DNA of 64,000 nt from a virus (IMGVR_UViG_3300013099_000018:32001-96000), one strand, 5' to 3'. Counted from the stretch's first letter, positions 14,594-53,500 are shown. A program made the numbers and translations. The notes: generated by a model from the letters alone, not told the origin.

Positions 14594-15625
14594 TTATGCA
14601 ATGGGATACCTATACTTGGCATGAGTCTCTGGATGTACCACGTCATAGCAATCCCAGTAGACATAGTATACCCAAGGGCTAACGATGCGATTCTCGACAT
14701 CGAGGTACGTTAGTAATTCATCCAACCTTATTAGAGTTAGAGGATTAATCCAATCGTTAGGATTGACGAGCATGATTCTTGAATTGTTTATCAAGTCTCT
14801 TATTCTTAACATTAATGAGTAATTACGCCTATATCTATTGAACCACTCTGGATTGACGTACTTAGCAATGTTGTAAACTGATTCAATTATGCAATATATA
14901 GCACTCTTGTAACCAACGCAATCGAACATTCTTATCTCGATGGTATCAACGCTCTTAATTCTATGCCTTCCCTCTTTACGGTTAGTGTTTATGATTATAT
15001 CATGATACCTATGACTTAAGTTAGCCTCTTCATCATATATCCAGTAATCTTCGTATTCATAGTTGTCATAATGCAACGGTAGAGTTCCGATGTGAGGACT
15101 TTCAAGTTGTCTAAGACTTAACACTTCACCGTATCTTTCGCTCTTAAATGGAGCGGACAATGTAATTCTTGTAATATCGAGAACAAATGGGTACATTGCT
15201 AAAGCATGCTCGACCATTCTGCCAAAGCTCATTTCGGGCTTGTAGCTAACGTGAACATGGAAACCGCAGAACATTCCTCCTTTGATATACGAAACTGGAG
15301 CTATGATACATTCTTTTTCTCTTGCAACTCTCGAAACCTCTTTCATTAGCTCGATTAGCTCATCAGCAACTTCTTTCCAGTCCTCAGAAGGATTAGTTCT
15401 AATCTCAAGCTGGTACTCATAGTAGTCTTTGTAAACCCTTTCATCGAACTCTGAGTAAATGTCCTCGATTACGTCTTTCTCATTTAGTAGTTCATATCTA
15501 TCTTCATAGATGTCGATGAGATAGATTTCCATCTCAGCACCAATTACAACCTCTTTTTCAAACTTAGCCTCTAAAGCTTCTTCCAACCTCGAAAGGAGCA
15601 TACCCATCACCTCACTTAAATCCAA
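14594..15625 (-). CDS. GCS2/COOH-NH2 ligase (mirror of 24636-25667)
   Basis: GAEME, QLEIRT, GFHVHVS, EIRMFD. Confidence 0.8.
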   Translation of the reverse strand: MDLSEVMGMLLSRLEEALEAKFEKEVVIGAEMEIYLIDIYEDRYELLNEKDVIEDIYSEFDERVYKDYYEYQLEIRTNPSEDWKEVADELIELMKEVSRVAREKECIIAPVSYIKGGMFCGFHVHVSYKPEMSFGRMVEHALAMYPFVLDITRITLSAPFKSERYGEVLSLRQLESPHIGTLPLHYDNYEYEDYWIYDEEANLSHRYHDIIINTNRKEGRHRIKSVDTIEIRMFDCVGYKSAIYCIIESVYNIAKYVNPEWFNRYRRNYSLMLRIRDLINNSRIMLVNPNDWINPLTLIRLDELLTYLDVENRIVSPWVYYVYWDCYDVVHPETHAKYRYPIA

Positions 15626-15628
15626 AAA

Positions 15629-16480
15629 TTAGAGGTAAAATCTCCAATCTCTCCAGATATCCCATTCTTCCTCAACATGGCAATCGCAGTTTAGTGATTT
15701 CCCTTTAACCTTGAACTCGATGAAGTCATTGTATTCTTCTCCGTCTCTTGAATAAACGAGGAGTTCACAGTCTCTTAAAGCTTTGATTTTCTTGACCCTG
15801 ATTTCTTCGAGCATCCATCTTTCTGATGCAAACCATAGCTTGCTGTTTTTGAAACCATAGAACAATGGTCTTTCAAATCTGAATAAAGCAAGTAGGTCAT
15901 CTTTCTTTGAATATATCCAGAGTGCCATGTCCCCGAAATATATCAAGTAGCTTAAGGCTCTTTCGAGAGCCTCGATGAAATCATTGTATTTGTTATACTC
16001 TTCTTGAATTGCTACTCCTATTTCGAATGAGTCTGTTTCAGGCAAATCCGTTTCAACTTTACCAAGTATTTCATAGGTATCGATGTATTCGTAATCGTAA
16101 TCGAATTTAGAATTTCCACTCCTTATGTCCTTGAACAATGTATATTCGTAAAGCATGCCATTGTGAGCAAATACTATATCCTTAAGCTCGAAAGGATGGT
16201 TGTTTTTGTTTTTCAATGGGTCTCCAATGGTTGGCTCTCTGGTGTGCATTAGGAACATGTTTCTACCTACAACAAGCTCACTGAATGGTCTTATCCTATC
16301 AATCATCTCGATGACATCTGAAGCACTGGAAGGGAACTTTATCACGTTTTCACCATTGTAAAAGCCAAAGGCTTTATCGCCTCTCGATTGCAGATAGATT
16401 GCTAGCTCGATGAGTCTCTTGGCATCTCTCTTGTCCAGTCTTACATCACCTAATCCCCAAACTCCACCTATACCGCACAT
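15629..16480 (-). CDS. Class II glutamine amidotransferase (mirror of 23781-24632)
   Basis: MCGI, RG, HTR, HPF, HNG, TDS. Confidence 0.88.
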   Translation of the reverse strand: MCGIGGVWGLGDVRLDKRDAKRLIELAIYLQSRGDKAFGFYNGENVIKFPSSASDVIEMIDRIRPFSELVVGRNMFLMHTREPTIGDPLKNKNNHPFELKDIVFAHNGMLYEYTLFKDIRSGNSKFDYDYEYIDTYEILGKVETDLPETDSFEIGVAIQEEYNKYNDFIEALERALSYLIYFGDMALWIYSKKDDLLALFRFERPLFYGFKNSKLWFASERWMLEEIRVKKIKALRDCELLVYSRDGEEYNDFIEFKVKGKSLNCDCHVEEEWDIWRDWRFYL

Positions 16481-16609
16481 ACTACCACCTCTACAATAAA
16501 ATAGTCGAACAAACGTTATATAAACCTTGCGGTATTAATGAGATAGGGATTTAGATATAATGGCTTGAGATTCTTTAGAAACGAATAAGGTGGAAAAACA
16601 AAAAAGGAT

Positions 16610-16873
16610 TTAATAGTTTTTATATTCCTGAAGTAGCTGGACTATAGATTCTAATCTCGACATTAATAGCCTTATATCTTCACCATATTTATCAAGTAAC
16701 TCTGTGAATGTCTTTAGTACAGTTTCATCTTTGTATTTCATACTGTGTAAGATTACAGCTATATGTCCAACTTCTGTTTTTATCTCTCTAAGGCTACTTA
16801 GGACTGCTTCCAGCTTACCATAAGTATACCATACTGTTTTTTCCAATTCAACCCTACCCTCCATCTCAACCAC
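16610..16873 (-). CDS. Small helical protein (mirror of 23388-23651)
   Basis: Own strong promoter and RBS. Confidence 0.65.
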   Translation of the reverse strand: MVEMEGRVELEKTVWYTYGKLEAVLSSLREIKTEVGHIAVILHSMKYKDETVLKTFTELLDKYGEDIRLLMSRLESIVQLLQEYKNY

Positions 16874-17002
16874 CTCTATACCTAACTATGCCATAATTGT
16901 TATATAAATCTTGTGGTATTACACTATAGAGGATTAGCAGATAGAACCAAGCTAAACAATTTTAGAATTATTACAAAAAAGGAGAAATAATTAAAGAAAT
17001 AA

Positions 17003-17377
17003 TTAGATTGAAAGTTTTATGATTGGCTCTAGAATGTTCCTGAGTTTTTCAATACCATATGCTCCAGTTGCGAATATTGTTAAGTAGTATTCACCAAAAC
17101 TGTAAGCACAAATGCATGAACCAGGAATTATGCTTGAAATTTTGGATTCATCTCCTTTTCTCACGACAATACTCGCCTGCACCTCGTAGATGTTCTCTCC
17201 GATTTCTGCGACCTTTATCGCACTGTGTGCAAGGATTTTTGGTTGTACTGGCTTGTGTATATAGACTGTTTGACCATCTACATGAACTTCTGCCCCGAAT
17301 TTCTTTGCTAACTCTTCTACTATTTTTACCATTTCCAATTCAACCCTATCCACCTTAGCCTTTGCCATCTCAACCAC
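17003..17377 (-). CDS. Small protein (mirror of 22884-23258)
   Basis: Own strong promoter and RBS. Confidence 0.65.
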   Translation of the reverse strand: MVEMAKAKVDRVELEMVKIVEELAKKFGAEVHVDGQTVYIHKPVQPKILAHSAIKVAEIGENIYEVQASIVVRKGDESKISSIIPGSCICAYSFGEYYLTIFATGAYGIEKLRNILEPIIKLSI

Positions 17378-17910
17378 CTCTATCTTATCCTATACCGCAA
17401 TTGCTATATAAACTTTGCGGTATTAGCTCGACATAACAATTAAAACCTCTCGACATATTTATAAAAATGGCTCGATGTAAAGGATATCAAGAATATTCCG
17501 ACAGATGAATGAAAACGGCTCGACATGAGCCTCTTTCGCCCCCCATTCTGGGATTTTTATAATTTGATTTTTATAATTTCGCCCCCATGTTAGTCTCCGC
17601 CCCCGCCTCCGCATTCTATTGCGGATTTTTATAATTTGGTTTTTATTGTTTTCACCCTTTGCTAATGTCCATGCCTACCGTGATTTCCTTTTTGGGGTTT
17701 TTATAATGCGATTTTTATAATGACTGCCGTGTCATAATGTCTGATTCCCACATGCTGACATTTATCGAGCATTTTTATTGTTTTTGTTTTATTTCTGCGA
17801 TTTTATTTTTCGCCCATGATTTTAAGTAGCAGTATAGGCATATGTCATCATCATGCTTTGGACTTCCCCCTATAAACCATTCACCGCAAATTCGACACTT
17901 TGGCATGTTT

Positions 17911-19320
17911 TCACCCCCAAGCTTTTATCTGGTTTACAACTTTTCTGTCGATGCCTAAACTTTCAAGCTTACTGATGAATTCATTGAAGTTGTTACTACT
18001 CCATGCTATTTTTGTTAGGATAGTGTTTAGTTTATCATCAGTTTCGACAAAAATAATTTTAGTTTGTAGTTGTGTTGTTTTGCTTTTAGTTCTATATTTG
18101 GTATTTTGCTTAATTGCAAATTTGCTTAAGTCAAATTCAGAATCTGTGGATTCTTCATATTTTGGATATTTAAATCGGTATTCTAGAGCTTTTAGTAAGT
18201 TTACCCCTAGTTCTTTGCTAAGTTTTATAAGTGGTTTTCTTATAAACTTAATAAGTAGTTTAAACTTATTCCTAAGATATAGTTTATCTAATTTGTTTAA
18301 TTCTTTACCATAATAGTTTATCTTTTCATAGATTTCTTTAGTTTTGTTGAAGTTTGGTTCATCGAAAGGAATTTCGTAAGTTTTTAGAGCAATTGCTAAT
18401 AACGTAGCTGTAAGCAAAACATGGTTATCAACGTCTTTAGGTGAATCTGGGAATCTTATTTCTACAGCATAATCCTTAAGATGTACACAACAGTATTTGT
18501 TTATGAAATGGTTTTTGTAGTTGTCATATTCATCTGGGAATTCCTTATATTCATATCTTTCGTAAGTATCAGGAAAACAAAACATATAGCTAAGCAAATC
18601 GCTAAAGAATAGTATATTTGAGGCAATAATTGTATCATAATCGAGCCATGACTTATTGCCATTTTCCCAGGAGATATTAATGTGTCCACCACATTTATCT
18701 TCAATGCTTATGTTTTCTTTTCCAATTTCTGAAACAATAGCCTTAATAGCATGCCAATAGTCTTTTAATGAGCTAAATGGTTTAGTAACAAATTCCATGC
18801 CACAAGATTCATCGTAATAGTAGTTATCTAAGTATGGTTCAATCTTTGAAATATCAATGTCATCTAAGCTATAATAGTCATTATATGGGCAATAATCCCT
18901 ATTGTAAATGTATTCACAATCACTACACCTATCGCAACAATCACACACCAGTTCTTGCCACAAATAGTTTTCTTGACAAACTTCGCAAATATCTCTATCA
19001 TCATTTTCTTCAAGATATCCATGCCTTATTGCGTAATCCCTTATGTCTTCGGGATTACATCTTTCGCAATATAGTTGTTCATTTTGGCAATATTCACAAA
19101 CTGGGCAATTGTCGCAAATTGCACAATAAGAACAGCTTTCACAGTCATAACCGCTTATTACTGTTTCGATTTCTGTTCCTATTTTGTACATGAGTTTTGG
19201 TTTTATTGCTATTTGCTGTTTTTCCGATTCTTTTCCTGATTCTTCTATTATTTTGTCAATAATCTTATCTAACTCCATGTTTAACATTATGGTGTTATTG
19301 TTATATAAACTTTGTGGCAT
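17911..19320 (-). CDS. Amidoligase with Cys-rich insert (mirror of 20941-22350)
   Basis: GTEIE, MEFVT, CGGHINIS, VEIR. Confidence 0.72.
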   Translation of the reverse strand: MPQSLYNNNTIMLNMELDKIIDKIIEESGKESEKQQIAIKPKLMYKIGTEIETVISGYDCESCSYCAICDNCPVCEYCQNEQLYCERCNPEDIRDYAIRHGYLEENDDRDICEVCQENYLWQELVCDCCDRCSDCEYIYNRDYCPYNDYYSLDDIDISKIEPYLDNYYYDESCGMEFVTKPFSSLKDYWHAIKAIVSEIGKENISIEDKCGGHINISWENGNKSWLDYDTIIASNILFFSDLLSYMFCFPDTYERYEYKEFPDEYDNYKNHFINKYCCVHLKDYAVEIRFPDSPKDVDNHVLLTATLLAIALKTYEIPFDEPNFNKTKEIYEKINYYGKELNKLDKLYLRNKFKLLIKFIRKPLIKLSKELGVNLLKALEYRFKYPKYEESTDSEFDLSKFAIKQNTKYRTKSKTTQLQTKIIFVETDDKLNTILTKIAWSSNNFNEFISKLESLGIDRKVVNQIKAWG

Positions 19321-20110: not shown

Positions 20111-20150
20111 CCCACATTATATTATTACACGTGTAATAATATAATGTGGG
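20111..20150. other. Putative hairpin telomere tip (palindrome centre between 20130 and 20131)
   Basis: Perfect dyad with alternating purine-pyrimidine core TACACGTGTA; gene-free and flanked by repeats. Confidence 0.7.
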
Positions 20151-20159
20151 TTTCCGCCA

Positions 20160-20246
20160 GCGGTTTTTTATAATTCGGTTTTTATATTTTTGTGCGAATC
20201 CGTCTGTGCCATTTTGTTTGCGGTTTTTTATAATTCGATTTTTATA
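20160..20246. repeat. Subterminal direct repeat GCGGTTTTTTATAATTCG(G/A)TTTTTATA x2, 60-bp period
   Basis: Copies at 20160-20186 and 20220-20246. Confidence 0.85.
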
Positions 20247-20411
20247 GTGCTGTGTGGATTTCAATTTGCCTCATCATCATGGCTCGACTGTGTCTTTGTG
20301 CATTGCTCCGTTTGTATAATTTAAGATGAATAAATCTTGTGTATGCAAACCAAGTATAAATTGCTTTTTATTATTAGGATTATATTAAAACAAGCCATTG
20401 ATTCATGCTGA

Positions 20412-20910
20412 AATTGCATTAGTGTAATACGTCTTGTGAAATTGAAGGTACGCAATTTCAGGCACGAAATTACAGCTATGCAAGTACCACAGAGTAATTA
20501 CAAATATGTAAGTTCAAAAGTGCAATTAAACATAGCTAATTGGGAACGCCAAATTACAGCTATTGAATTTCGTCAAACTAATTACAATTGTGTACTTACG
20601 CTTGTGGAATTTAAGGCATGGAAATACGTGCTTGAGATTATAGGTTTGCAAATATGAAAATGCAAATTTTGATTAGCAATTAAGTAAATGGTATTTTAGA
20701 ATTGTAATATAGGCTATGTAATTCGACTTGTGAATTTTTGTGCATGAAATTTTGTGCATGAAATTTTGTTCACAAAATTTTATGCATGAAAATTTGTGCA
20801 TGAAATTTTATACACAAAATTTCATATATGAAAATTCCTATATGAAATCTCATATACGAAACTTTATACACAAAATTTCGTATATGAAAATTCATGCATG
20901 AAATTTCATA
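20412..20910. repeat. Degenerate 14-bp-period tandem array; distal ~13 units near-palindromic (consensus ~GAAATTTYRTRCAT)
   Basis: AATT-like words at 20412, 20440, 20454, 20468, 20496, 20524, 20538, 20552, 20566, 20580, 20608 and at 20733, 20748, 20762, 20776, 20791, 20804, 20818, 20833, 20846, 20860, 20874, 20889, 20902. Confidence 0.8.
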
Positions 20911-20937
20911 TATGTACTTACACAAGTGTAATTACGA

Positions 20938-20960
20938 TTAATGCCACAAAGTTTATATAA
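20938..20960 (+). promoter_or_regulatory. Strong archaeal BRE-TATA promoter (TTAATGCCACAAAGTTTATATAA); implies leaderless start at ATG 20983
   Basis: Same motif as 22836, 23340, 23724. Confidence 0.7.
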
Positions 20961-22350
20961 CAATAACACCATAATGTTAAACATGGAGTTAGATAAGATT
21001 ATTGACAAAATAATAGAAGAATCAGGAAAAGAATCGGAAAAACAGCAAATAGCAATAAAACCAAAACTCATGTACAAAATAGGAACAGAAATCGAAACAG
21101 TAATAAGCGGTTATGACTGTGAAAGCTGTTCTTATTGTGCAATTTGCGACAATTGCCCAGTTTGTGAATATTGCCAAAATGAACAACTATATTGCGAAAG
21201 ATGTAATCCCGAAGACATAAGGGATTACGCAATAAGGCATGGATATCTTGAAGAAAATGATGATAGAGATATTTGCGAAGTTTGTCAAGAAAACTATTTG
21301 TGGCAAGAACTGGTGTGTGATTGTTGCGATAGGTGTAGTGATTGTGAATACATTTACAATAGGGATTATTGCCCATATAATGACTATTATAGCTTAGATG
21401 ACATTGATATTTCAAAGATTGAACCATACTTAGATAACTACTATTACGATGAATCTTGTGGCATGGAATTTGTTACTAAACCATTTAGCTCATTAAAAGA
21501 CTATTGGCATGCTATTAAGGCTATTGTTTCAGAAATTGGAAAAGAAAACATAAGCATTGAAGATAAATGTGGTGGACACATTAATATCTCCTGGGAAAAT
21601 GGCAATAAGTCATGGCTCGATTATGATACAATTATTGCCTCAAATATACTATTCTTTAGCGATTTGCTTAGCTATATGTTTTGTTTTCCTGATACTTACG
21701 AAAGATATGAATATAAGGAATTCCCAGATGAATATGACAACTACAAAAACCATTTCATAAACAAATACTGTTGTGTACATCTTAAGGATTATGCTGTAGA
21801 AATAAGATTCCCAGATTCACCTAAAGACGTTGATAACCATGTTTTGCTTACAGCTACGTTATTAGCAATTGCTCTAAAAACTTACGAAATTCCTTTCGAT
21901 GAACCAAACTTCAACAAAACTAAAGAAATCTATGAAAAGATAAACTATTATGGTAAAGAATTAAACAAATTAGATAAACTATATCTTAGGAATAAGTTTA
22001 AACTACTTATTAAGTTTATAAGAAAACCACTTATAAAACTTAGCAAAGAACTAGGGGTAAACTTACTAAAAGCTCTAGAATACCGATTTAAATATCCAAA
22101 ATATGAAGAATCCACAGATTCTGAATTTGACTTAAGCAAATTTGCAATTAAGCAAAATACCAAATATAGAACTAAAAGCAAAACAACACAACTACAAACT
22201 AAAATTATTTTTGTCGAAACTGATGATAAACTAAACACTATCCTAACAAAAATAGCATGGAGTAGTAACAACTTCAATGAATTCATCAGTAAGCTTGAAA
22301 GTTTAGGCATCGACAGAAAAGTTGTAAACCAGATAAAAGCTTGGGGGTGA
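20941..22350 (+). CDS. Putative amidoligase (glutamine-synthetase/COOH-NH2 ligase fold) with acidic Cys-rich insert; probable start 20983
   Basis: IGTEIE (ExE), GMEFVT, CGGHINIS, VEIRFPD; about 18 Cys in CxxC repeats between the first two motifs. Confidence 0.72.
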   Translation: MPQSLYNNNTIMLNMELDKIIDKIIEESGKESEKQQIAIKPKLMYKIGTEIETVISGYDCESCSYCAICDNCPVCEYCQNEQLYCERCNPEDIRDYAIRHGYLEENDDRDICEVCQENYLWQELVCDCCDRCSDCEYIYNRDYCPYNDYYSLDDIDISKIEPYLDNYYYDESCGMEFVTKPFSSLKDYWHAIKAIVSEIGKENISIEDKCGGHINISWENGNKSWLDYDTIIASNILFFSDLLSYMFCFPDTYERYEYKEFPDEYDNYKNHFINKYCCVHLKDYAVEIRFPDSPKDVDNHVLLTATLLAIALKTYEIPFDEPNFNKTKEIYEKINYYGKELNKLDKLYLRNKFKLLIKFIRKPLIKLSKELGVNLLKALEYRFKYPKYEESTDSEFDLSKFAIKQNTKYRTKSKTTQLQTKIIFVETDDKLNTILTKIAWSSNNFNEFISKLESLGIDRKVVNQIKAWG

Positions 22351-22835
22351 AAACATGCCAAAGTGTCGAATTTGCGGTGAATGGTTTATAGGGGGAAGTC
22401 CAAAGCATGATGATGACATATGCCTATACTGCTACTTAAAATCATGGGCGAAAAATAAAATCGCAGAAATAAAACAAAAACAATAAAAATGCTCGATAAA
22501 TGTCAGCATGTGGGAATCAGACATTATGACACGGCAGTCATTATAAAAATCGCATTATAAAAACCCCAAAAAGGAAATCACGGTAGGCATGGACATTAGC
22601 AAAGGGTGAAAACAATAAAAACCAAATTATAAAAATCCGCAATAGAATGCGGAGGCGGGGGCGGAGACTAACATGGGGGCGAAATTATAAAAATCAAATT
22701 ATAAAAATCCCAGAATGGGGGGCGAAAGAGGCTCATGTCGAGCCGTTTTCATTCATCTGTCGGAATATTCTTGATATCCTTTACATCGAGCCATTTTTAT
22801 AAATATGTCGAGAGGTTTTAATTGTTATGTCGAGC
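22351..22835. repeat. Non-coding region with paired TTATAAAAA boxes, GGGGGCG(A/G)A and TCGAG repeats; degenerate inverted copy of the terminal boxes
   Basis: CATTATAAAAATCGCATTATAAAAACC etc. match the reverse complement of 20160-20246. Confidence 0.65.
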
Positions 22836-22869
22836 TAATACCGCAAAGTTTATATAGCAATTGCGGTAT
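22836..22869 (+). promoter_or_regulatory. BRE-TATA promoter inside inverted repeat ATACCGCAA-N14-TTGCGGTAT
   Basis: TAATACCGCAAAGTTTATATAGCAATTGCGGTAT. Confidence 0.75.
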
Positions 22870-22883
22870 AGGATAAGATAGAG

Positions 22884-23258
22884 GTGGTTGAGATGGCAAA
22901 GGCTAAGGTGGATAGGGTTGAATTGGAAATGGTAAAAATAGTAGAAGAGTTAGCAAAGAAATTCGGGGCAGAAGTTCATGTAGATGGTCAAACAGTCTAT
23001 ATACACAAGCCAGTACAACCAAAAATCCTTGCACACAGTGCGATAAAGGTCGCAGAAATCGGAGAGAACATCTACGAGGTGCAGGCGAGTATTGTCGTGA
23101 GAAAAGGAGATGAATCCAAAATTTCAAGCATAATTCCTGGTTCATGCATTTGTGCTTACAGTTTTGGTGAATACTACTTAACAATATTCGCAACTGGAGC
23201 ATATGGTATTGAAAAACTCAGGAACATTCTAGAGCCAATCATAAAACTTTCAATCTAA
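22884..23258 (+). CDS. Small early protein, unknown function; probable start 22893
   Basis: GAGGTGG RBS, dedicated promoter, T-rich terminator. Confidence 0.7.
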   Translation: MVEMAKAKVDRVELEMVKIVEELAKKFGAEVHVDGQTVYIHKPVQPKILAHSAIKVAEIGENIYEVQASIVVRKGDESKISSIIPGSCICAYSFGEYYLTIFATGAYGIEKLRNILEPIIKLSI

Positions 23259-23339
23259 TTATTTCTTTAATTATTTCTCCTTTTTTGTAATAATTCTAAA
23301 ATTGTTTAGCTTGGTTCTATCTGCTAATCCTCTATAGTG

Positions 23340-23361
23340 TAATACCACAAGATTTATATAA
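23340..23361 (+). promoter_or_regulatory. BRE-TATA promoter TAATACCACAAGATTTATATAA
   Basis: Near-identical to 22836 and 23724. Confidence 0.72.
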
Positions 23362-23387
23362 CAATTATGGCATAGTTAGGTATAGAG

Positions 23388-23651
23388 GTGGTTGAGATGG
23401 AGGGTAGGGTTGAATTGGAAAAAACAGTATGGTATACTTATGGTAAGCTGGAAGCAGTCCTAAGTAGCCTTAGAGAGATAAAAACAGAAGTTGGACATAT
23501 AGCTGTAATCTTACACAGTATGAAATACAAAGATGAAACTGTACTAAAGACATTCACAGAGTTACTTGATAAATATGGTGAAGATATAAGGCTATTAATG
23601 TCGAGATTAGAATCTATAGTCCAGCTACTTCAGGAATATAAAAACTATTAA
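23388..23651 (+). CDS. Small helical early protein; probable start 23397
   Basis: RBS/5' end shared with 22884 gene. Confidence 0.68.
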   Translation: MVEMEGRVELEKTVWYTYGKLEAVLSSLREIKTEVGHIAVILHSMKYKDETVLKTFTELLDKYGEDIRLLMSRLESIVQLLQEYKNY

Positions 23652-23723
23652 ATCCTTTTTTGTTTTTCCACCTTATTCGTTTCTAAAGAATCTCAAGCCA
23701 TTATATCTAAATCCCTATCTCAT

Positions 23724-23745
23724 TAATACCGCAAGGTTTATATAA
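23724..23745 (+). promoter_or_regulatory. BRE-TATA promoter TAATACCGCAAGGTTTATATAA
   Basis: Precedes GATase-ligase pair. Confidence 0.72.
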
Positions 23746-23780
23746 CGTTTGTTCGACTATTTTATTGTAGAGGTGGTAGT

Positions 23781-24632
23781 ATGTGCGGTATAGGTGGAGT
23801 TTGGGGATTAGGTGATGTAAGACTGGACAAGAGAGATGCCAAGAGACTCATCGAGCTAGCAATCTATCTGCAATCGAGAGGCGATAAAGCCTTTGGCTTT
23901 TACAATGGTGAAAACGTGATAAAGTTCCCTTCCAGTGCTTCAGATGTCATCGAGATGATTGATAGGATAAGACCATTCAGTGAGCTTGTTGTAGGTAGAA
24001 ACATGTTCCTAATGCACACCAGAGAGCCAACCATTGGAGACCCATTGAAAAACAAAAACAACCATCCTTTCGAGCTTAAGGATATAGTATTTGCTCACAA
24101 TGGCATGCTTTACGAATATACATTGTTCAAGGACATAAGGAGTGGAAATTCTAAATTCGATTACGATTACGAATACATCGATACCTATGAAATACTTGGT
24201 AAAGTTGAAACGGATTTGCCTGAAACAGACTCATTCGAAATAGGAGTAGCAATTCAAGAAGAGTATAACAAATACAATGATTTCATCGAGGCTCTCGAAA
24301 GAGCCTTAAGCTACTTGATATATTTCGGGGACATGGCACTCTGGATATATTCAAAGAAAGATGACCTACTTGCTTTATTCAGATTTGAAAGACCATTGTT
24401 CTATGGTTTCAAAAACAGCAAGCTATGGTTTGCATCAGAAAGATGGATGCTCGAAGAAATCAGGGTCAAGAAAATCAAAGCTTTAAGAGACTGTGAACTC
24501 CTCGTTTATTCAAGAGACGGAGAAGAATACAATGACTTCATCGAGTTCAAGGTTAAAGGGAAATCACTAAACTGCGATTGCCATGTTGAGGAAGAATGGG
24601 ATATCTGGAGAGATTGGAGATTTTACCTCTAA
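23781..24632 (+). CDS. Class II (Ntn) glutamine amidotransferase
   Basis: Catalytic Cys2 in MCGIGG; QSRG, HTR, NNHPF, AHNG, ETDS. Confidence 0.9.
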   Translation: MCGIGGVWGLGDVRLDKRDAKRLIELAIYLQSRGDKAFGFYNGENVIKFPSSASDVIEMIDRIRPFSELVVGRNMFLMHTREPTIGDPLKNKNNHPFELKDIVFAHNGMLYEYTLFKDIRSGNSKFDYDYEYIDTYEILGKVETDLPETDSFEIGVAIQEEYNKYNDFIEALERALSYLIYFGDMALWIYSKKDDLLALFRFERPLFYGFKNSKLWFASERWMLEEIRVKKIKALRDCELLVYSRDGEEYNDFIEFKVKGKSLNCDCHVEEEWDIWRDWRFYL

Positions 24633-24635
24633 TTT

Positions 24636-25667
24636 TTGGATTTAAGTGAGGTGATGGGTATGCTCCTTTCGAGGTTGGAAGAAGCTTTAGAGGCTAAGTT
24701 TGAAAAAGAGGTTGTAATTGGTGCTGAGATGGAAATCTATCTCATCGACATCTATGAAGATAGATATGAACTACTAAATGAGAAAGACGTAATCGAGGAC
24801 ATTTACTCAGAGTTCGATGAAAGGGTTTACAAAGACTACTATGAGTACCAGCTTGAGATTAGAACTAATCCTTCTGAGGACTGGAAAGAAGTTGCTGATG
24901 AGCTAATCGAGCTAATGAAAGAGGTTTCGAGAGTTGCAAGAGAAAAAGAATGTATCATAGCTCCAGTTTCGTATATCAAAGGAGGAATGTTCTGCGGTTT
25001 CCATGTTCACGTTAGCTACAAGCCCGAAATGAGCTTTGGCAGAATGGTCGAGCATGCTTTAGCAATGTACCCATTTGTTCTCGATATTACAAGAATTACA
25101 TTGTCCGCTCCATTTAAGAGCGAAAGATACGGTGAAGTGTTAAGTCTTAGACAACTTGAAAGTCCTCACATCGGAACTCTACCGTTGCATTATGACAACT
25201 ATGAATACGAAGATTACTGGATATATGATGAAGAGGCTAACTTAAGTCATAGGTATCATGATATAATCATAAACACTAACCGTAAAGAGGGAAGGCATAG
25301 AATTAAGAGCGTTGATACCATCGAGATAAGAATGTTCGATTGCGTTGGTTACAAGAGTGCTATATATTGCATAATTGAATCAGTTTACAACATTGCTAAG
25401 TACGTCAATCCAGAGTGGTTCAATAGATATAGGCGTAATTACTCATTAATGTTAAGAATAAGAGACTTGATAAACAATTCAAGAATCATGCTCGTCAATC
25501 CTAACGATTGGATTAATCCTCTAACTCTAATAAGGTTGGATGAATTACTAACGTACCTCGATGTCGAGAATCGCATCGTTAGCCCTTGGGTATACTATGT
25601 CTACTGGGATTGCTATGACGTGGTACATCCAGAGACTCATGCCAAGTATAGGTATCCCATTGCATAA
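24636..25667 (+). CDS. Glutamate-cysteine ligase family 2 / COOH-NH2 ligase; probable start 24660
   Basis: IGAEMEI, QLEIRT, CGFHVHVS, TIEIRMFD; GAGGTGA RBS. Confidence 0.82.
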   Translation: MDLSEVMGMLLSRLEEALEAKFEKEVVIGAEMEIYLIDIYEDRYELLNEKDVIEDIYSEFDERVYKDYYEYQLEIRTNPSEDWKEVADELIELMKEVSRVAREKECIIAPVSYIKGGMFCGFHVHVSYKPEMSFGRMVEHALAMYPFVLDITRITLSAPFKSERYGEVLSLRQLESPHIGTLPLHYDNYEYEDYWIYDEEANLSHRYHDIIINTNRKEGRHRIKSVDTIEIRMFDCVGYKSAIYCIIESVYNIAKYVNPEWFNRYRRNYSLMLRIRDLINNSRIMLVNPNDWINPLTLIRLDELLTYLDVENRIVSPWVYYVYWDCYDVVHPETHAKYRYPIA

Positions 25668-25875: not shown

Positions 25876-26163
25876 TTGTGGTATAGTTTGAATATTATTG
25901 ATGAAATACTGGATAGAGCTAAAAAATCTAAGGTGATTTATGAGATACTCAGTATCTCAAAAGAACAATATGATGAGTTGTTTAGGCAATATTCAGAGGA
26001 GTTTAAGCAAATAGTTAAGACTGGAAAGTTTGTTGAAGCTTCCGTTAAGTTACTGAGGTGGTTGGGATTCGATGAAAGTGAGATTGATTTGGATAAGTTG
26101 ATTAAGGGGGTAGTAGTGATGAAAGTATTGGTACATTATTTAAACAAAAGCAAAAAAAGCTAA
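25876..26163 (+). CDS. Hypothetical protein
   Basis: Charged helical ORF. Confidence 0.5.
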   Translation: MWYSLNIIDEILDRAKKSKVIYEILSISKEQYDELFRQYSEEFKQIVKTGKFVEASVKLLRWLGFDESEIDLDKLIKGVVVMKVLVHYLNKSKKS

Positions 26164-39495: not shown

Positions 39496-39855
39496 GTGAT
39501 ATATATGGGCGATGGTAAGAGGTATATATTAAGTGCATCGGTAATGCCATGTTCGGCAGATGAGTTTACTATAAGCAGTAAAAGGATTAGCCTTGAAGAG
39601 GCTAAGGAATGGGTCAAAAAGGGAGACTTTATTAGTGCTGTAGGACACGAAAGCACGGCAAAATTGCTAAGCGAACTATTAGGCGTTGAGATAAAGCCAA
39701 ACAGAATAGTAGTTGATATGGGTGTAGGAGACGAAGCATTAGCCACACAGTTCTTAATAAGAATACAGGAAGGCAAAGTATTAAATGAGAAAGAGTTAAA
39801 GGAGTTATACGATAATGGTAAAATCGTTTTTAGACTAATCAAAAGAATTGCTTAA
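39496..39855 (+). CDS. acrIII-1: AcrIII-1 (DUF1874, STIV B116/YddF-like) cA4 ring nuclease anti-CRISPR
   Basis: ISAVGHESTA (catalytic His), NR, GD, R..EGKVL...EL; own promoter. Confidence 0.9.
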   Translation: MIYMGDGKRYILSASVMPCSADEFTISSKRISLEEAKEWVKKGDFISAVGHESTAKLLSELLGVEIKPNRIVVDMGVGDEALATQFLIRIQEGKVLNEKELKELYDNGKIVFRLIKRIA

Positions 39856-45658: not shown

Positions 45659-47002
45659 GTCAGCTACCCCGCCCTAAAGGGCGGAGCTTGCTCGACCTCT
45701 CCTAACGGAGAGGGAGCATCGGGACGGCTGACAAACGCCCCGTTTTGAAGAGATTTCAAAACCCTTAACATAATATTTTTAGCACCGACAATATCTGCAT
45801 GTTCTTTGAATCCACAATTCTTACATTCGAATTCTTTACCATTTCTATTTTCTTTAGCAGTGTAACCGCATACTGGACAACTTATTGATGTGCATTGCGG
45901 ATTCACATAAACTACCTTACTTCCGTAGAGCTTAGCTTTGTACTCGATTAGGGTTTGAAGCTCTCTGAAACACCACTGGCTAAACAACCTTCTTTTCTCT
46001 CCCTTGAACTTAGCGTTGTTTTCTCTGAATTCTCTAATGCCTTCTAAGTCCTCCAAACCGAAAACACAAGGTGAGTTCTCTACTACAATCTTCTTAGCAA
46101 CGACATGGAGGAAATTTCTAACCAGCCGTTTCTCGACTCCGCTAAGAGACAACAAACGCCTCTTAGCGGAGCGAGTGCCTTTAGCCTGAAGCTGTGAGCG
46201 TAACTTCTGATAATGGGATTTCAATCTCAAAACTTGTTGAGAGAATTCGATAAGCTTAGATTTGCCTAAACTATCATGCAAAGCTACAAAACTATTGGAA
46301 GGTTCGTTTATATCAACTCCGACAACCTTCTTAGGCTTGAGTTCCTTATCAGGAACATCTACAGATACAATAAGATACCAGAGCTTGTTACTCCTCTCGT
46401 AATAAAGAATGGCATCTCCGTAACCGTATTTCTCAATATATTCGTAGTGTTTGTTCCAACCATAGTAAGGTATTTTCTTCAATCTTTCACCGATAACCGA
46501 GATTGAACAAACTCTTGGATTTAGCTTTAAATCATAGCTCCTTCTTTTAACGAGCTTAACAATCAGTTTTTTCCTTCTAATTGGTTTTCCAATCTCTTTA
46601 TAGAATAGTTCGATTAACTTCTTACGATTTCTCTTCGAGATATTAAATTTCTCAGCTAACTGGTTAAAGACAGAATCGTAATGTTGAGCAACCTCTCTGA
46701 TAACTGAAATAGCAATCTGAGACTGAAAACCATACTTCTCTTTGAGTTTGTAGTATAAAGCCTTATGCAAACTAATATGGTCAAAAACACGATTGTTAAA
46801 AGCGTATTCGCTAATTTCGTTAAATGCATCTCTATACTTTTTGGCTAAATCCAAAATCTTCTGCTTTTGCTCCTTCGTAAGTTCAAGCTTAAATTTCACA
46901 GATATTGTAACCATTCATTGAGTTGTGAAAAATTTAGATATTTAAGTGTTGCGGTACTCCTCTCCGCTTTGAAAAGCGAAATTTCCGCACCGCTATTATT
47001 TT
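45659..47002 (-). mobile_element. Non-autonomous IS200/IS605-family (IS1341-like, TnpB-only) element
   Basis: Right end CAAGCTCCGCCCTTTAGGGCGGGGTAGCTGAC, left-end hairpin TTTCGCTTTTCAAAGCGGAG, TTCAT 5' of left end, no target duplication, no tnpA. Confidence 0.82.
45664..46914 (-). CDS. tnpB: TnpB RNA-guided endonuclease
   Basis: RuvC D (VGVD), E (LEDL), D (HADIVGAKNI); CPVCG/CKNCG Zn ribbon. Confidence 0.95.
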   Translation of the reverse strand: MVTISVKFKLELTKEQKQKILDLAKKYRDAFNEISEYAFNNRVFDHISLHKALYYKLKEKYGFQSQIAISVIREVAQHYDSVFNQLAEKFNISKRNRKKLIELFYKEIGKPIRRKKLIVKLVKRRSYDLKLNPRVCSISVIGERLKKIPYYGWNKHYEYIEKYGYGDAILYYERSNKLWYLIVSVDVPDKELKPKKVVGVDINEPSNSFVALHDSLGKSKLIEFSQQVLRLKSHYQKLRSQLQAKGTRSAKRRLLSLSGVEKRLVRNFLHVVAKKIVVENSPCVFGLEDLEGIREFRENNAKFKGEKRRLFSQWCFRELQTLIEYKAKLYGSKVVYVNPQCTSISCPVCGYTAKENRNGKEFECKNCGFKEHADIVGAKNIMLRVLKSLQNGAFVSRPDAPSPLGEVEQAPPFRAG

Positions 47003-47531: not shown

Positions 47532-50500
47532 ATGGCAACTGAGGTTGAGGAATTTAACATCAATCCACAAATAATCATTCAAGCATTCGATATTGAAAAA
47601 ACTTTAGAAGAGTTTAGCCTAAGCGATATCGAAGAGTTTTACATTGAATACGGTGGTGTAACCGACCCATTAGGACAACTAGCATCGACAGTGCTAAATG
47701 CTATTGATAGGGGGTTGTCATCTGTAAAGAATGCTATATTGGGTAAAATCTCTGATGTATATAATACAGTCAGTAAACTACCTGGTAGAATAAGTGATGT
47801 TCTTTCAAAATTGGGTAATATAGGAGATGTTATTAATGATATATTAAATACAGTTAAAGGAATTCCAGGCAGAATAAGCGATGTTTTAAATAAAATTGGT
47901 AGTGTTGGTAGTGTTGTAAATTCTATTTTTGAAAGGGTTAAAGAACTTCCAGGCAAGGTGGGTGAAATATTAAGTAAATTAGGTAATATAGGTTCTACGG
48001 TTAAAGACATATTTGATAAGATTAAGGGTATTTATCAAAAAATAGCTGATGGATTTAAGAATGCATTAGACAAAATACGAGATATTTACGATAAGATTAA
48101 AGAAATACCTCAAAAAATAGCTGATGGGTTTAAAGATGTCTTGAAGAATTTAGGCACTATTGTAGACAAAGTCAAAGAAATTCCACAAAAGATAGCTAAA
48201 GGGTTTGAAGATGTTGGAAAATCTCTTAACAACATATTCGAGAAGGTAAAAGAGCTACCAGAGAAAGTCTCTCAAGGATTTGAAGAGGTTTTAAAGAACT
48301 TAGGACTTATTGTAGACAAAGTCAAAGATTTACCTCAAAAGATATCCGATGGATTTAGAAACATATTAGATAAGGTTCGTGAAATCTTCGACAAAGTCAA
48401 AGAGTTACCACAGAAAATATCAGATGGTTTCAAAAACGTTATCGAGAATTTAAGAGGGATAATGGATAAAGTCAAGGAGTTACCACAGAAAATAGCTGAA
48501 GGTTTTGAAAATGTAGGTAAATCCCTTAGCGGAATAATCGAGGAAGTCAAAAAGATTCCAGAAAAGATTTCAAGTTTATTTGAAGAAATTAGGAAAAAGT
48601 TTGAAGATTTTGGAAAAACTATTGGAGATATTTTCGAAGAGGTTAGAAAAATCCCTGAAAAGATAGCAAAGGGATTTGAAAATGCCAGTAAAACAATAAA
48701 TAAGGTAATCGAGGAAGTCAAAAAGATTCCAGAGAAGATAAGTGAAGGATTTGGAGATATAATTGAAAAACTTAAAATATTACCAGAATTGCCACAAAAA
48801 GTATGGCAATTCATACAACAAAACATCGTTCAACCCCTTGAAGAACATGTCGTAAAGCCTATAAAAGCCTTCTTTGAAGACTTATGGGATAAACACATTA
48901 AACCATTCTTTGACAAATTAAGGGATATACCAACAAAAATGGCGGAAATCAGCAAAGCATTTCAGGGATTCGTCAACCCATTAGTAGGTATAGCACAATT
49001 CTTTGACCAAATTAGGCAGAAATTCATCGATTTCATAACTAATATTCCAAATTACATTAAGTCGATAGCAGATTTCTTTGGCAATATAGCTAAAGACCCG
49101 TTGGGTTGGTTCAACGATAATGTAGTAAAGCCTTTAGCAGATGCTTTCAGTGCAATAGGTAAGTGGATATGGGAACACTTACCAGATTGGCTCAAGAATG
49201 CAATAACCACAGTACAAGATTGGTTCTCTGGAGCTAAGGATTGGATAACAAAAGGATGGAGAGACTTTGTCGATTGGGTTAGTAAGATACCAGAGCATAT
49301 CCAAAACTTAGGAAACTATATCTATGATAACGCAATTAAACCATTGCAAAATTGGTTAGATGAACAAATAATATCGCCATTTAGCGAATATATTGTTAAA
49401 CCTCTTGGAGATATAGGAGCTAAAGTTTGGCAAACTCTTAGCTCAGCATTTGATAGAATTAGAAATGCTATAAGTGAATTCTTAAAAGACCCAATAGGTT
49501 TCATCGGTGGGATATTTAATTTCTTGATTAGTGGATTAAAGAAAATTGGAGAAGCTATATGGGGCGGAATTACATCTGCTGGAGAGTGGTTCGCAAGTAA
49601 AGCTACTGAAGCATTCAACGCAATCTTTTCAAAAGTTATCAAACCTATATATGATAGTTTTGAAAACATAGGTAAATCTATAGTTAGTTTCATAAACAAA
49701 CCATTCATATCTTTGGTTGGAGCAGTTAAAGGTTTAGCAGATAAAATTGCTAAAGCTACAGATGAACCTATAACCAAGCTTATTTATGACCTTTTCACAC
49801 CACTGGTTAGCAATGTTGCAAAAACTATGGAAAATCATGTTATGAAATTAGTTAATAAGCTTAGTAAAGGTCAATCTGCGGGTGAGGTTATAGAATCACT
49901 ACAGCTTACTGGATTGCTTTATGGTTCGATAGTTCTCAATCAGTATTTGTTTAGAGCAATATCGTTAGGGTTACATGCTTTAGCTTCAGCTTTTGACAAA
50001 TACAATTGGGAAATGTTTATTGGATGGAGAGTAAAGGTAAAGGGAGAGCATGGATTCAGATTCGTTCCAGCAGGTGTTGGTGTTAGGCAAGCTATAGGAG
50101 ATTCTACGTTAGTTCAACAAGCAATTCCAATTTACGTTGGATTAAACTTAGGTGGAACTTTGAGACACATTGCAAAAGAAATGAAAAACTATGCAGATGA
50201 GTGGGGTAGAGCAGTTCTATATGGTTATGCAATTTGGCTATCACAACCCATGATGCGTTTGGCAAGTTCAATGTTTAGAAATATGTTACCTATTGAACTA
50301 CCGTCATTATCCGAGCTTAGAACTATAACAAGGAGACACATGCCAATCAAAGAGAAATTCGAACAACACCTAGAAACTATGAGAAGGTATCTTGCGTTAT
50401 ATGGTTACAACGATGAAGTCGTGGCATGGTTGACAACTCCAATAACAGAGAAAGGTTGGTTTGTTACAATTGTAGATAGGTTTGGCAAGGAAAGAAAAGT

Positions 50501-53500
50501 CCCGATAAGCTTACTGTATGAGCTACCGACACCTTCAGATATAGCAAGAATGATGATTCATGACCTATTTACACTTCCAGAACAAGAAGAGGTTGCGTTT
50601 GAGAGCTTTAAGAAATTGATGGCTATGAAAGGATACAACGAAGACATCGCTAAGCTCTATTACTTGCTACACTACAAATATCCAAGCATGAGCGATTTAT
50701 GGGAATTCACTTGTAGAGTGGTAGCAAAACAAACATGGGTTGAGTATGTTCCTGAACCAGAGATGGACTTAGGTGCGCCAAATCCGAAATCTCCTGTGCA
50801 ATTACAAAGCACATATGGGTTAACTAAGTTTACGAGTGAAGAAGTGTGGAATAAATTAAAGAGTGCAACAGAAAACATTTTGAGACACTATGCAAAGTGG
50901 CATGATTATGCTCCATTCACATGGATTAAAGATTGGACAGCAGATAACTTAATTTACATAGACTTAATGGCTGACATACCACAGAGAATCGATGCAAGAT
51001 GGATGTATAAGTGGCAAGTCCCTGTTCCCAAAGCGATTTACGATATTACCAATAATGAATACTTTGATGAGAAAGCACTCTTCTTAATTGTAACTTCAAG
51101 AGGAATGCATCCCAAATGGATAGAATCTATAGTAATTGCTGAGTGCATGAACGCATTAGCAGAAGAGAGAACATATGCAAGAACGGGTGTCATCAACGCA
51201 TTCAAGGAAGGATTTATGCCATTGGATGGATTGACAAAGACACTATCAAACCTCACAACGATAAAGATTCTTGATAGAGATGTCCCTGTTAGATTCTTAG
51301 AAGGAGAAGTTAAGCTACTTGCATTAAGAGCCAAATATGACAGAGCATTGGACATTCTAAGGGATTATTTCAAAGATTTACTTAGAGGAGTAACCGAGAA
51401 CATAATCCCATTCGATGGAATGACTAAAAGCTTAAAAGACGAAATAAATGCAGTAGCTAAATCGTTAGGATTAACAAATCTTGCATTAGATGAAGACTAT
51501 TACAAACTATATCAACCAGTAGCAGACTCTCTCAGAAAGGTAAGAACAATTGAGAGGATAAGATATTGGTACAGATACATGCTTTACAGAATTCTATATA
51601 GATTCTCAGAAGGATTCATGAGTAAAGACGAATTCAACAAAACAATAAACGACATTGTAAACAACGCAAAGCTAACTGATGAAGAAAAGAAGGTCTTTGT
51701 CGAGATTGCACAACTAATGTATGATGGTTTCTACAAGAAGACTAAAGCAGATGGAATTCTTAGAAAATTAGCAAGAGGTGTAATAACACATGAACAAGCA
51801 AAACAAGAACTAATTAAATTAGGGTTAACTGAGGATTTAGCAGATGCTCTCATAGAGAAGCATGCCAAAACTTACACATTATCAATCTCGACTCTACTAA
51901 GCTATGCTGATGAAGTTTACATTCCAGAGGAGTTACTAATGAAGAAACTTGAGATTCTTGGAGTTCCACAAGATGAGCGAGAAATTGTCTTACAAGTGTT
52001 TAAGATAAGACCAATCAAGGACGAAAGAGCAAAAGCAATCAGAATACAGATTGAGAAATTTATCGAAGGATACATAGATGAAAACACACTTAGACAAGAG
52101 TTAAGTAAACTTGGTAAATTTAAAGAGGAAATTGACCTAATTGTTCAATATGCTAAGGTAGAAAAAGAAATGGAAATCTACAAACTAAGAATTGATGCTA
52201 TTCTTAATAAGATAAGAAGAGGAGTATTAACTATCGAAGAGGCTAGGAATGTCCTTAGCAAATATATAACAGACAAAGATATAGTCGAAGCTCTAATTGA
52301 AAAAGCAGTCAGAGTTTATACCTTATCAGTGGCTCAACTATTGAGCTACGCAGAATACGTAGACATTCCAGAAGAACTGTTAAAGAGGAAATTAGAAATA
52401 TTAGGTGTTCCAAAAGATGAAATACCCATTATCTTGCAAGTTTTCAGAATAAGACCTCTAAGAGACGAATATGCTAAGCAAATTTCAGAAACACTTAAGC
52501 AATTCGAGGAAGGATACATTGATGAGGAGAAACTTAAGTCCACTCTAAAAGAATTAGGTAAAAGCGATAAGGAGATTCAAATTCTTGTAACTTTTGCAAA
52601 GGCTCGTAGGTGGAGACACAAGGTTGAATACTTTGTGGATGCAATCTTGAACCAGCTAAGGAGAGGAGCAATTACCATCGACAAGGCTAAAGAAGAGTTG
52701 TCGAAATACATCGTGGATGAGAGTCTAATAGATGCGATGATAGAAAAGACTGTAAGAGTTTACACATTGTCAATACCACAATTACTTAGCTATGCAGAAT
52801 ACGTAGATATTCCAGAGGAATTCATTAAAAAGAAGCTTGAGATTCTCGGAGTTCCAGAGGATGAAGTTCCAATTATCTTGCAAGTGTTTAGAATAAGACC
52901 ACTAAAGGATGAAAGAGCTAAGATGATTAGGAGTGTCATAGATGCATATATCAATGGTTATATCTCAAAAGACTTGCTCCAGCAAAACTTAAAGAACTTA
53001 GGAAAATCACCAAGGGAAATTCAAATTCTAACAGAATTTGCAGATTTTGAGAAATCCCAAGCTGAAGCAAAGTTAGCCATAGATGCAATTCTAAACAGAT
53101 TAAGAAGAGGAGCAATAACACTTGAAGAGGCTAAGAAGGAGCTATCGAAATACATTGTGGACAAAGCTCTTATAGATGCTATCATTGAAAAATATGTTAG
53201 AACTTCTGTTTGGACACCAGACAAATTGGTTAGCATGGCAGAATATGTACCTATAGATATTCAAAAGCTTGTAGATAAAGCAAAGATGTTCGGATATCCA
53301 GAGGAAGAAGTAAAATTATATCCAGCATACCTCATAGCAAGAAATCTCAATGAAGAAATTGGAAGAATAATAACAGAGCTTGTATACCTCTATGTTTACG
53401 ACATCATTGACGAAGAAACATTGAGAAAAGAGATTGATAAGGTTAGAACTCTAAATGGTGAAGTTAAAAAGCTTGGCGTAGATTGGATTGTTATTGATGA

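Follow-up and report, generated by a model that had tools for sequence, protein, structure and literature searches.

A predicted amidoligase and glutamine amidotransferase module beside the genome end of an Adnaviria-like archaeal virus

We analysed a 64,000-nt window of a metagenomic viral record (IMGVR_UViG_3300013099_000018:32001-96000) and focused on a module of five open reading frames (ORFs), at positions 20941-25667, which a first-pass annotation had described as two amidoligases and a glutamine amidotransferase interleaved with two small genes. All coordinates given here are positions in this window; the whole record spans 104,260 bp (G000:C1 1-104260). The ORF listing returned the five ORFs where they had been placed, and we refer to them, in order along the plus strand, as AL1, p124, p87, GATase and AL2. 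The module is a divergent archaeal-rod-virus variant of the known viral phiEco32-type system of amidoligases and class-II glutamine amidotransferase (GAT-II), and not something categorically new. In our judgement the probability is slightly better than even that it represents the Adnaviria rod-virus version of this viral module, that is, a three-enzyme ATP-dependent system which would form amide bonds and which, counting inward from a hairpin telomere, makes up the first transcription block.

Fold and catalytic residues of the three enzymes

Both putative ligases resemble carboxylate-amine ligases in their predicted structures. An alignment-based AlphaFold model of AL2 (predicted local distance difference test, pLDDT, 87.5; predicted template modelling score 0.90) matched the YbdK-type structure 1tt4 with a Z score of 25.0 over 288 aligned residues (root-mean-square deviation, rmsd, 3.0) and a second YbdK-type structure with Z 24.5, followed by glutamate-cysteine ligases (GCL; Z 19-21, with 21 for a plant enzyme), PafA and Dop (16-17.7, with 17.7 for PafA) and glutamine synthetases (GS; about 15-16). 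The AlphaFold model of AL1 had a lower overall pLDDT of 77.6, exceeding 90 in the core, and its residues 40-394 gave the same kind of matches: 1tt4 with Z 17.5 over 246 aligned residues (rmsd 3.8), the second YbdK-type structure with 16.5, the plant GCL with 16.0, Dop with about 15 and GS with 14.6. Hundreds of GS, GCL and PafA chains scored above Z 8 for the two models, which by fold place AL1 and AL2 among the carboxylate-amine ligases of the GS and gamma-glutamylcysteine synthetase (gamma-GCS) type, as had been claimed.

The conserved residues point in the same direction. In GS and gamma-GCS, an E-x-E motif on the first strand, a further Glu, a His and an E-x-R motif have metal- and ATP-binding roles. 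The residues invariant among 20 aligned AL2 sequences are E31, E33, E74, R76, H123, H125, E230 and R232, and those invariant among 26 AL1 sequences are E50, E52, E176, H213, E287 and R289, together with 10 cysteines. The cysteines belong to an insert of some 80 residues that follows the first strand (aa 58-136, nt 21112-21348) and is modelled at low confidence. In it 10 Cys are invariant and 2 nearly so, in CxxC spacing, and the insert probably binds several zinc ions.

Family searches, which the first-pass annotation had proposed as a check, gave a divided answer, recovering GATase and leaving both ligases without a family despite their fold. For AL2, PF14395 reached 19.5 bits against a cut-off of 25 (E 6e-4) and PF04107 reached 18.0 against 21, the latter family having a precomputed match in four members of the AL2 family; PF12224 did not match, and AL2 belongs to no PHROG family. 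AL1 had no Pfam match, PF14395 and PF12224 included, and no PHROG family, and a search of the whole genome with PF12224 (cut-off 22 bits) gave nothing at E <= 1. Comparison of both ligases with PDB sequences, as single sequences and as profiles, likewise yielded nothing meaningful. More distant links came from the AL2 profile, which aligned with an Amidoligase_2 (PF12224) protein of a 102-kb viral contig (hhalign 94.6%) on which no GATase_6 was found, and from language-model clusters, where 27 of the 30 nearest matches of AL1 were viral Amidoligase_2 families (score about 0.9), which serves as a lead only.

The AL1 family is small, with 47 clusters at E <= 0.001 in a library of 1.84 billion representatives, and its distant relatives, from freshwater metagenomes and from that library, carry no Pfam family and have no GATase alongside by tblastn. 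Scans of IMG/VR found no AL1 relative and a single distant AL2 relative. In 50,697 phage records, neither ligase had a tblastn match and the region had no blastn match; hhalign of the two profiles against single phage ligases was unsuccessful.

GATase, by contrast, was recognised by PF13522 (GATase_6) with 33.8 bits against a cut-off of 27 (E 4e-8), and a match to GATase_4, the YafJ/EgtC-type family, remained sub-threshold. As expected for the N-terminal nucleophile (Ntn) enzyme that had been annotated, a Cys directly follows Met1: the protein opens with MCGIGG, as do 24 of 26 family members, the other two opening upstream or with another start codon. Across 13 sequences the invariant residues are C2, R33-G34, H79-T80-R81, N94-H95-P96-F97, H106-N107-G108 and D150-S151. 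In PurF and GlmS such residues provide the nucleophile, the oxyanion hole and the holders of the alpha-carboxylate and alpha-amino groups of glutamine. With roles assigned by motif and not by structure, these residues support a bona fide class-II Ntn enzyme whose nucleophile and gamma-glutamyl-binding residues appear intact.

Conserved gene frame, promoters and small partners

To place these genes in context, we used the AL1 family as query and recovered 55 closely related vent-metagenome contigs, whose ORFs were clustered. The clustering revealed a conserved frame, AL1, p53, zn43, variable cassettes, GATase, AL2 and, optionally, p95, in which AL1 lies at most 1.64 kb from a contig end in all 55 contigs (median 412 nt). 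The recurrent co-occurrence predicted earlier holds for every related contig of sufficient length: GATase is present in 10/10 loci that extend 3.3 kb or more past the AL1 gene, and AL2 follows it in 14/14 loci with room downstream, mostly with an ORF gap of 3 nt. GATase is not fused to an acceptor (synthase) domain, and AL2 adjoins it in every testable locus. The downstream gene p95 follows AL2 in 9 related loci, with 49-79% identity and at variable distance.

A private promoter motif marks the module. The 52 kb of unique sequence hold exactly 4 copies of the BRE/TATA motif CCRCAARRTTTATATA (BRE, transcription factor B recognition element), where 0.03 would be expected per window, and these precede only AL1, p124, p87 and GATase. 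The near-identical promoters of the first-pass annotation were thus recovered for four of the five genes and not for AL2, which has no copy of its own; its ORF opens 3 nt past the GATase stop, and from this arrangement AL2 is read as operonic with GATase. Three of the four copies keep the same spacing to a GAGGTGG Shine-Dalgarno-like box and an ATG. Copy 1 overlaps the annotated AL1 ATG at 20941, and its spacing, together with the invariance of Met15, predicts a leaderless start near 20983; the real AL1 start is likely this Met15 (ATG 20983), with a leaderless mRNA. In the relatives the motif mostly heads AL1, each cassette and GATase, the exceptions being L041, with one copy elsewhere, and L056, with none.

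Other repeats surround the same genes. The AL1-zn43 unit is flanked by paired TTATAAAAA boxes, with two occurrences near the telomere (20160-20259) and three, in inverted orientation, in the interval from zn43 to p124 (22540-22710); protein-binding sites, promoters and recombination boundaries are candidate roles. Short imperfect repeats and palindromes resembling TGCATGAAATTTT form a dense array at 20718-20935, immediately 5' of the AL1 promoter, and are kept in the relatives.

The two small genes of the original proposal, of 124 and 87 codons, had been cast as substrates or adaptors of the enzymes, a role that the conservation data do not favour. Homologues of p124 occur in only 2 of the 55 related loci (L043 and L062) and those of p87 in about 10. 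Between zn43 and GATase, changing sets of unrelated small genes fill the slot across the related loci L010-L064 (for example L018:2822-5491), which makes it a hypervariable region beside the telomere. The families found there in relatives, f5 (122-219 aa, 32 loci), f25, the Cys-rich f29, f56 with a helix-turn-helix and f88, each have their own copy of the module promoter, with the two exceptions named above. Because p124 and p87 are poorly conserved and their slot holds changing cassettes, they are poor candidates for dedicated substrates or adaptors, and the genes of this slot look like exchangeable terminal cassettes instead.

The conserved small partners are two others, both of which the first-pass annotation had missed. 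The first, zn43, is present in 40/55 loci, directly after AL1 or p53. The second, p53, is a separate gene of about 53 aa after AL1 in 37 related loci and is fused in frame to the AL1 C-terminus in the window virus and its four closest relatives, which argues for a physical association between p53 and AL1. The AL1 homologues with a separate p53 (for example L014:695-1876) end in a strongly conserved tail, Q-L-[PT]-L-[TM]-A-F-A, which is lost in the fused AL1-p53 of the window.

Small proteins beside a GS-fold ligase recall pupylation, and in a Pup-like system the ligase would conjugate a small viral protein to proteins of the host or the virion, and the Dop-like deamidase would be either the Ntn enzyme or the second ligase. 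PafA and Dop share the fold and are among the top structural matches (Z 14-17.7), pupylation too pairs paralogous GS-fold enzymes with an amide-hydrolysing step, and p53 and zn43 accompany AL1, with p53 fused to it here. We nevertheless consider this reading very improbable. The tag itself is wanting: p124 and p87 are not conserved, zn43 ends in KQKQ, KQKH, KQKR or KLKA, p53 ends in W-x-F/W, and as candidate tags zn43, p53, p124 and p87 were rejected for lack of a conserved C-terminal Gln/Glu, none of the small proteins having a conserved Gly-Gly tail either. In addition, and unlike PafA/Dop, the module has no proteasome context and its hydrolase is an Ntn enzyme.

Proposed mechanism and the gamma-glutamyl alternative

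In the amide-bond-forming system that we favour, GATase and AL2, whose ORFs are mostly 3 nt apart and translationally coupled in all loci, would work as a two-subunit glutamine-dependent amidoligase. AL2 would activate a substrate carboxylate as an acyl-phosphate, GATase would free ammonia from glutamine, and the acyl-phosphate would be converted into a carboxamide; AL1 would form a further amide bond, either on this target or on a related one. This target may be a macromolecule, either protein or nucleic acid, since AL1 carries the Cys-rich insert of about 80 aa and the fused p53 domain and has a basic zinc-ribbon protein as partner. The position at the telomere and the shared promoter suggest early and co-ordinated expression, which could serve host take-over, anti-defence or superinfection exclusion. 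A more specific version, which we regard as unlikely in its full form, would be a post-translational or post-replicative system for modifying macromolecules that is specific to archaeal rod viruses: AL1, targeted by its zinc insert, p53 and zn43, would equip a protein of the host or virion, or DNA, with an amino-acid or peptide group, which GATase-AL2 would go on to amidate, and the cassettes would be alternative specificity or anti-defence factors.

Several points weigh against the favoured system. The enzymatic activities of all module members are predictions, and early expression is deduced solely by analogy with rudiviruses. Both ligases lie below every Pfam gathering threshold, and their profiles align with each other at just 9% in hhalign, yet with the catalytic motifs in register. 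No ATP-grasp protein (PF02655) was found in the 52-kb assembled genome, which is incomplete at its far end, unlike many phage clusters, where this enzyme is frequent and not universal. A search for longer proteins fusing GATase to a ligase found none, which is weak evidence. The conserved glutamine-binding residues of GATase would fit glutamine or a gamma-glutamyl amide alike, and to our knowledge the characterised ammonia-donating class-II amidotransferases are all fused to a synthase, while the stand-alone ones, such as EgtC, are hydrolases.

These last observations lead to the main rival, a hydrolase reading that the conserved residues cannot separate from the amidotransferase one. Here one or both ligases would behave like GCS2/EgtA-type enzymes and couple an amino acid, glutamate or another, to a metabolite or peptide at an amine or carboxylate group. 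The Ntn enzyme, as an EgtC-like gamma-glutamyl amidohydrolase, would remove or remodel the attached group, leaving a small metabolite of peptide-like character such as a thiol, a signalling mimic or an inhibitor. YbdK and glutamate-cysteine ligases are the best structural matches of both ligases, GATase stands alone and has the sub-threshold GATase_4 match, and in Vibrio phage 1.293.O a related Ntn hydrolase adjoins an AIG2-like gamma-glutamyl cyclotransferase. On the other hand, the tight coupling of GATase and AL2 is more typical of two-subunit amidotransferases, the Zn-rich insert of AL1 and its zinc-ribbon partner suggest a macromolecular target, and a search of the assembled genome for GGACT or another gamma-glutamyl cyclotransferase found none. 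We consider gamma-glutamyl ligation with trimming rather unlikely, and continue with amide-bond formation as the preferred interpretation.

The virus, its genome end and related viral systems

The assignment to a rod-shaped or filamentous archaeal virus agrees with the genes found elsewhere in the record. A SIRV-type coat protein (PF12193, E 2e-8), a STIV_B116-like protein, a 428-aa protein with a weak match to SFV1_VP4 and promoters of archaeal BRE/TATA form support an Adnaviria-like rod or filamentous virus. Two short related contigs are binned in metagenome-assembled genomes labelled Desulfurococcales and Thaumarchaeota, weak evidence on the host given the small size of these contigs.

The location of the module at a genome end was also borne out. 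The 104,260-bp record is a perfect palindrome over its whole length, with 0 mismatches, so that the unique sequence amounts to 52,130 bp, starting at window position 20131: positions 1-20130 are the exact reverse complement of 20131-40260, and each ORF left of 20130 is mirrored on the right. The far end of the unique sequence breaks off mid-gene, leaving the genome incomplete there. Six related contigs of differing sequence (L018, L019, L023, L031, L041 and L043) each open, within positions 1-112, with a perfect fold-back of 36-56 nt around a common axis at which ATTATTACAC meets GTGTAATAAT (core TTACAC/GTGTAA), the same sequence as at window 20130/20131, and several related contigs stop within tens of nt of the equivalent point. 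Because six relatives fold back on this conserved axis, the window axis is most likely a real genome end, a hairpin telomere, and the shared fold-backs point to a conserved hairpin telomere or resolution site in this virus group. Rudiviruses have covalently closed hairpin genome ends. Read-through of such a hairpin, or head-to-head replicative forms, is what would give fold-backs of this kind.

The minus-strand copy of the module on the other arm was considered as a second locus and ruled out, the mirror arm being an assembly or replicative-form duplicate. Given the palindrome, the label of inverted terminal repeats in IMG/VR and the CheckV completeness of the record are misleading.

Further from the module, a 1182-aa glycosyltransferase (54508-58056) is split by intein elements, with matches to LAGLIDADG_3, Intein_splicing and Hint_2; it is one of several glycosyltransferases of this genome and the one that contains inteins. 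A TnpB/Cas12f-like gene with OrfB_IS605 and TNB domains lies within the structural gene region (45664-46914, minus strand). A 2012-aa coiled-coil protein (47532-53570) has many tape-measure-like PHROG matches, though the virus is non-tailed; the matches are probably an effect of coiled-coil composition; alternatively, this protein may be a terminal fibre.

The genome also encodes a ThyA homologue, which raises the alternative of DNA base hypermodification, with the ligases and GATase building an amide-linked group on a modified pyrimidine downstream of the ThyA-like enzyme. Genes for amidoligases and glutamine amidotransferases have been noted in phage contigs together with genes for thymidine hypermodification (PMC8989533), and the zinc-ribbon features of the module could bind DNA. 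The genomic setting makes this reading quite improbable in our view: the ThyA homologue is about 9 kb off and has no module promoter motif, the neighbours of the module in relatives are variable small cassettes and not nucleotide-metabolism genes, and no kinase-like Pfam match lies between module and ThyA homologue, a statement that covers Pfam matches, 5-HMUDK and aGPT-Pplase not having been searched for. The features of the module and of its surroundings are collected in Table 1.

Table 1. Coordinates of the module and of other features in the 64,000-nt window
Feature	Position	Strand	Basis
Mirror image of module, other palindrome arm	14594..19320	-	ORF listing and repeat search
Hairpin/fold-back axis (most likely)	20130/20131	.	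Contig palindrome and fold-backs of relatives
Gene-poor, repeat-rich stretch adjoining telomere	20131..20940	.	Contig palindrome, fold-backs and ends of relatives
BRE/TATA promoter copy 1, before AL1	20944..20959	+	Motif search, sequence read
AL1, predicted GS/GCS-fold carboxylate-amine ligase	20983..22350 (ORF from 20941)	+	AlphaFold model fold match
p53-like C-terminal domain of AL1, about 50 aa	~22198-22347	+	Separate ~53-aa gene in relatives
zn43, 43-aa CxxC...CxxC zinc-ribbon protein, basic C-terminal helix	22355..22486	+	Translation; operonic with AL1
BRE/TATA promoter copy 2, before p124	22841..22856	+	Motif search
p124, variable cassette gene, no known family	22893..23258 (ORF from GTG 22884)	+	Pfam/PHROG search
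BRE/TATA promoter copy 3, before p87	23345..23360	+	Motif search
p87, variable cassette gene, helical, no known family	23397..23651 (ORF from GTG 23388)	+	Pfam search
BRE/TATA promoter copy 4, before GATase-AL2 operon	23729..23744	+	Motif search
GATase, predicted stand-alone class-II (Ntn) glutamine amidotransferase / gamma-glutamyl amidohydrolase, 283 aa	23781..24632	+	PF13522
AL2, predicted YbdK/GCS2-like carboxylate-amine ligase	24660..25667 (likely start; ORF from TTG 24636)	+	AlphaFold model fold match
p95, conserved downstream neighbour	25876..26163	+	No module promoter copy
ThyA (thymidylate synthase) homologue, short, 213 aa	34541-35182		PF00303, E 2e-15
STIV_B116-like protein	39496-39855		Pfam search
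SIRV-type coat protein, 122 aa	42253-42621		PF12193, E 2e-8, 34.9 bits vs cut-off 25.2

Among known systems, the phiEco32-type one, which combines Amidoligase_2 (PF12224), a type 2 ligase (PF14395) and GAT-II, often with an ATP-grasp enzyme, is attributed to Iyer, Abhiman, Burroughs and Aravind (2009) in two later papers (PMC10580990, PMC11706807), which mention cell-wall modification, prevention of superinfection or secondary metabolites as possible roles. Such amidoligase/GATase pairs are widespread in phages and have been annotated for more than 15 years. Annotated examples come from many phages and from one tailed archaeal virus, with functions that are only guessed at (PMC10580990, PMC11706807). 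In the literature searched, no paper links amidoligases to Adnaviria and none gives a biochemical function, substrate or phenotype for the viral pairs. Presenting the locus as an undescribed system was therefore an overstatement, since systems of this kind were predicted in 2009 and are already annotated in viruses (PMC10580990, PMC11706807), the locus being a divergent variant of them.

The best fold match of AL1 and AL2 is to the YbdK/GCS2 ligases (PDB 1r8g and 1tt4; PF04107), with which they have the E-x-E, H and E-x-R residues in common; identity to these is only 13-16%, and enzymes of the YbdK type are cellular and have no GATase partner. A parallel in setting is Vyasavirus, a Poseidoniales virus that also combines an amidoligase with a GATase, interpreted there as an auxiliary or superinfection-immunity function (PMC11706807). 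Vyasavirus, however, is a tailed magrovirus-type virus with Pfam-recognisable genes, whereas the virus studied here is rod-shaped or filamentous and carries two ligases unrecognised by Pfam in a telomere-adjacent module.

The resemblance to the phiEco32-type operons, already noted in the first-pass annotation, is real and extends to gene order. In both, a single viral block unites a class-II Ntn amidotransferase with two different GS-fold ligases, and the nearest phage relatives of GATase, in tailed phages (27-30% identity over 80% of its length), lie directly upstream of a PF14395 ligase. The cluster of Vibrio phage 1.293.O consists, in this order, of a GGCT-like gene (the AIG2-like gamma-glutamyl cyclotransferase), GAT-II, the PF14395 ligase, one further gene, Amidoligase_2 and ATP-grasp, and in Erwinia phage Pecta GAT-II is followed by a PF14395 ligase; the window has the same arrangement of GATase immediately upstream of a type-2-like ligase (stop at 24632, AL2 ORF at 24636). 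The differences are that the phiEco32-type systems belong to tailed phages and this one to an Adnaviria rod virus, that both ligases here score below every Pfam threshold, that AL1 has its Cys-rich insert and fused p53 domain, with zn43 and p53 as new partners, and that the module is telomere-adjacent, has a promoter motif of its own and is interspersed with variable cassettes.

By itself the locus reveals no new mechanism. Its clear boundary, with the hairpin telomere on one side, its private promoter motif and the newly recognised partners p53 and zn43 make it a tidy candidate for biochemistry, as thermostable proteins often behave well. With three enzymes, the module is a compact form of the phiEco32-type system, strongly conserved in archaeal rod viruses of hyperthermophile type, and it extends this system to Adnaviria.

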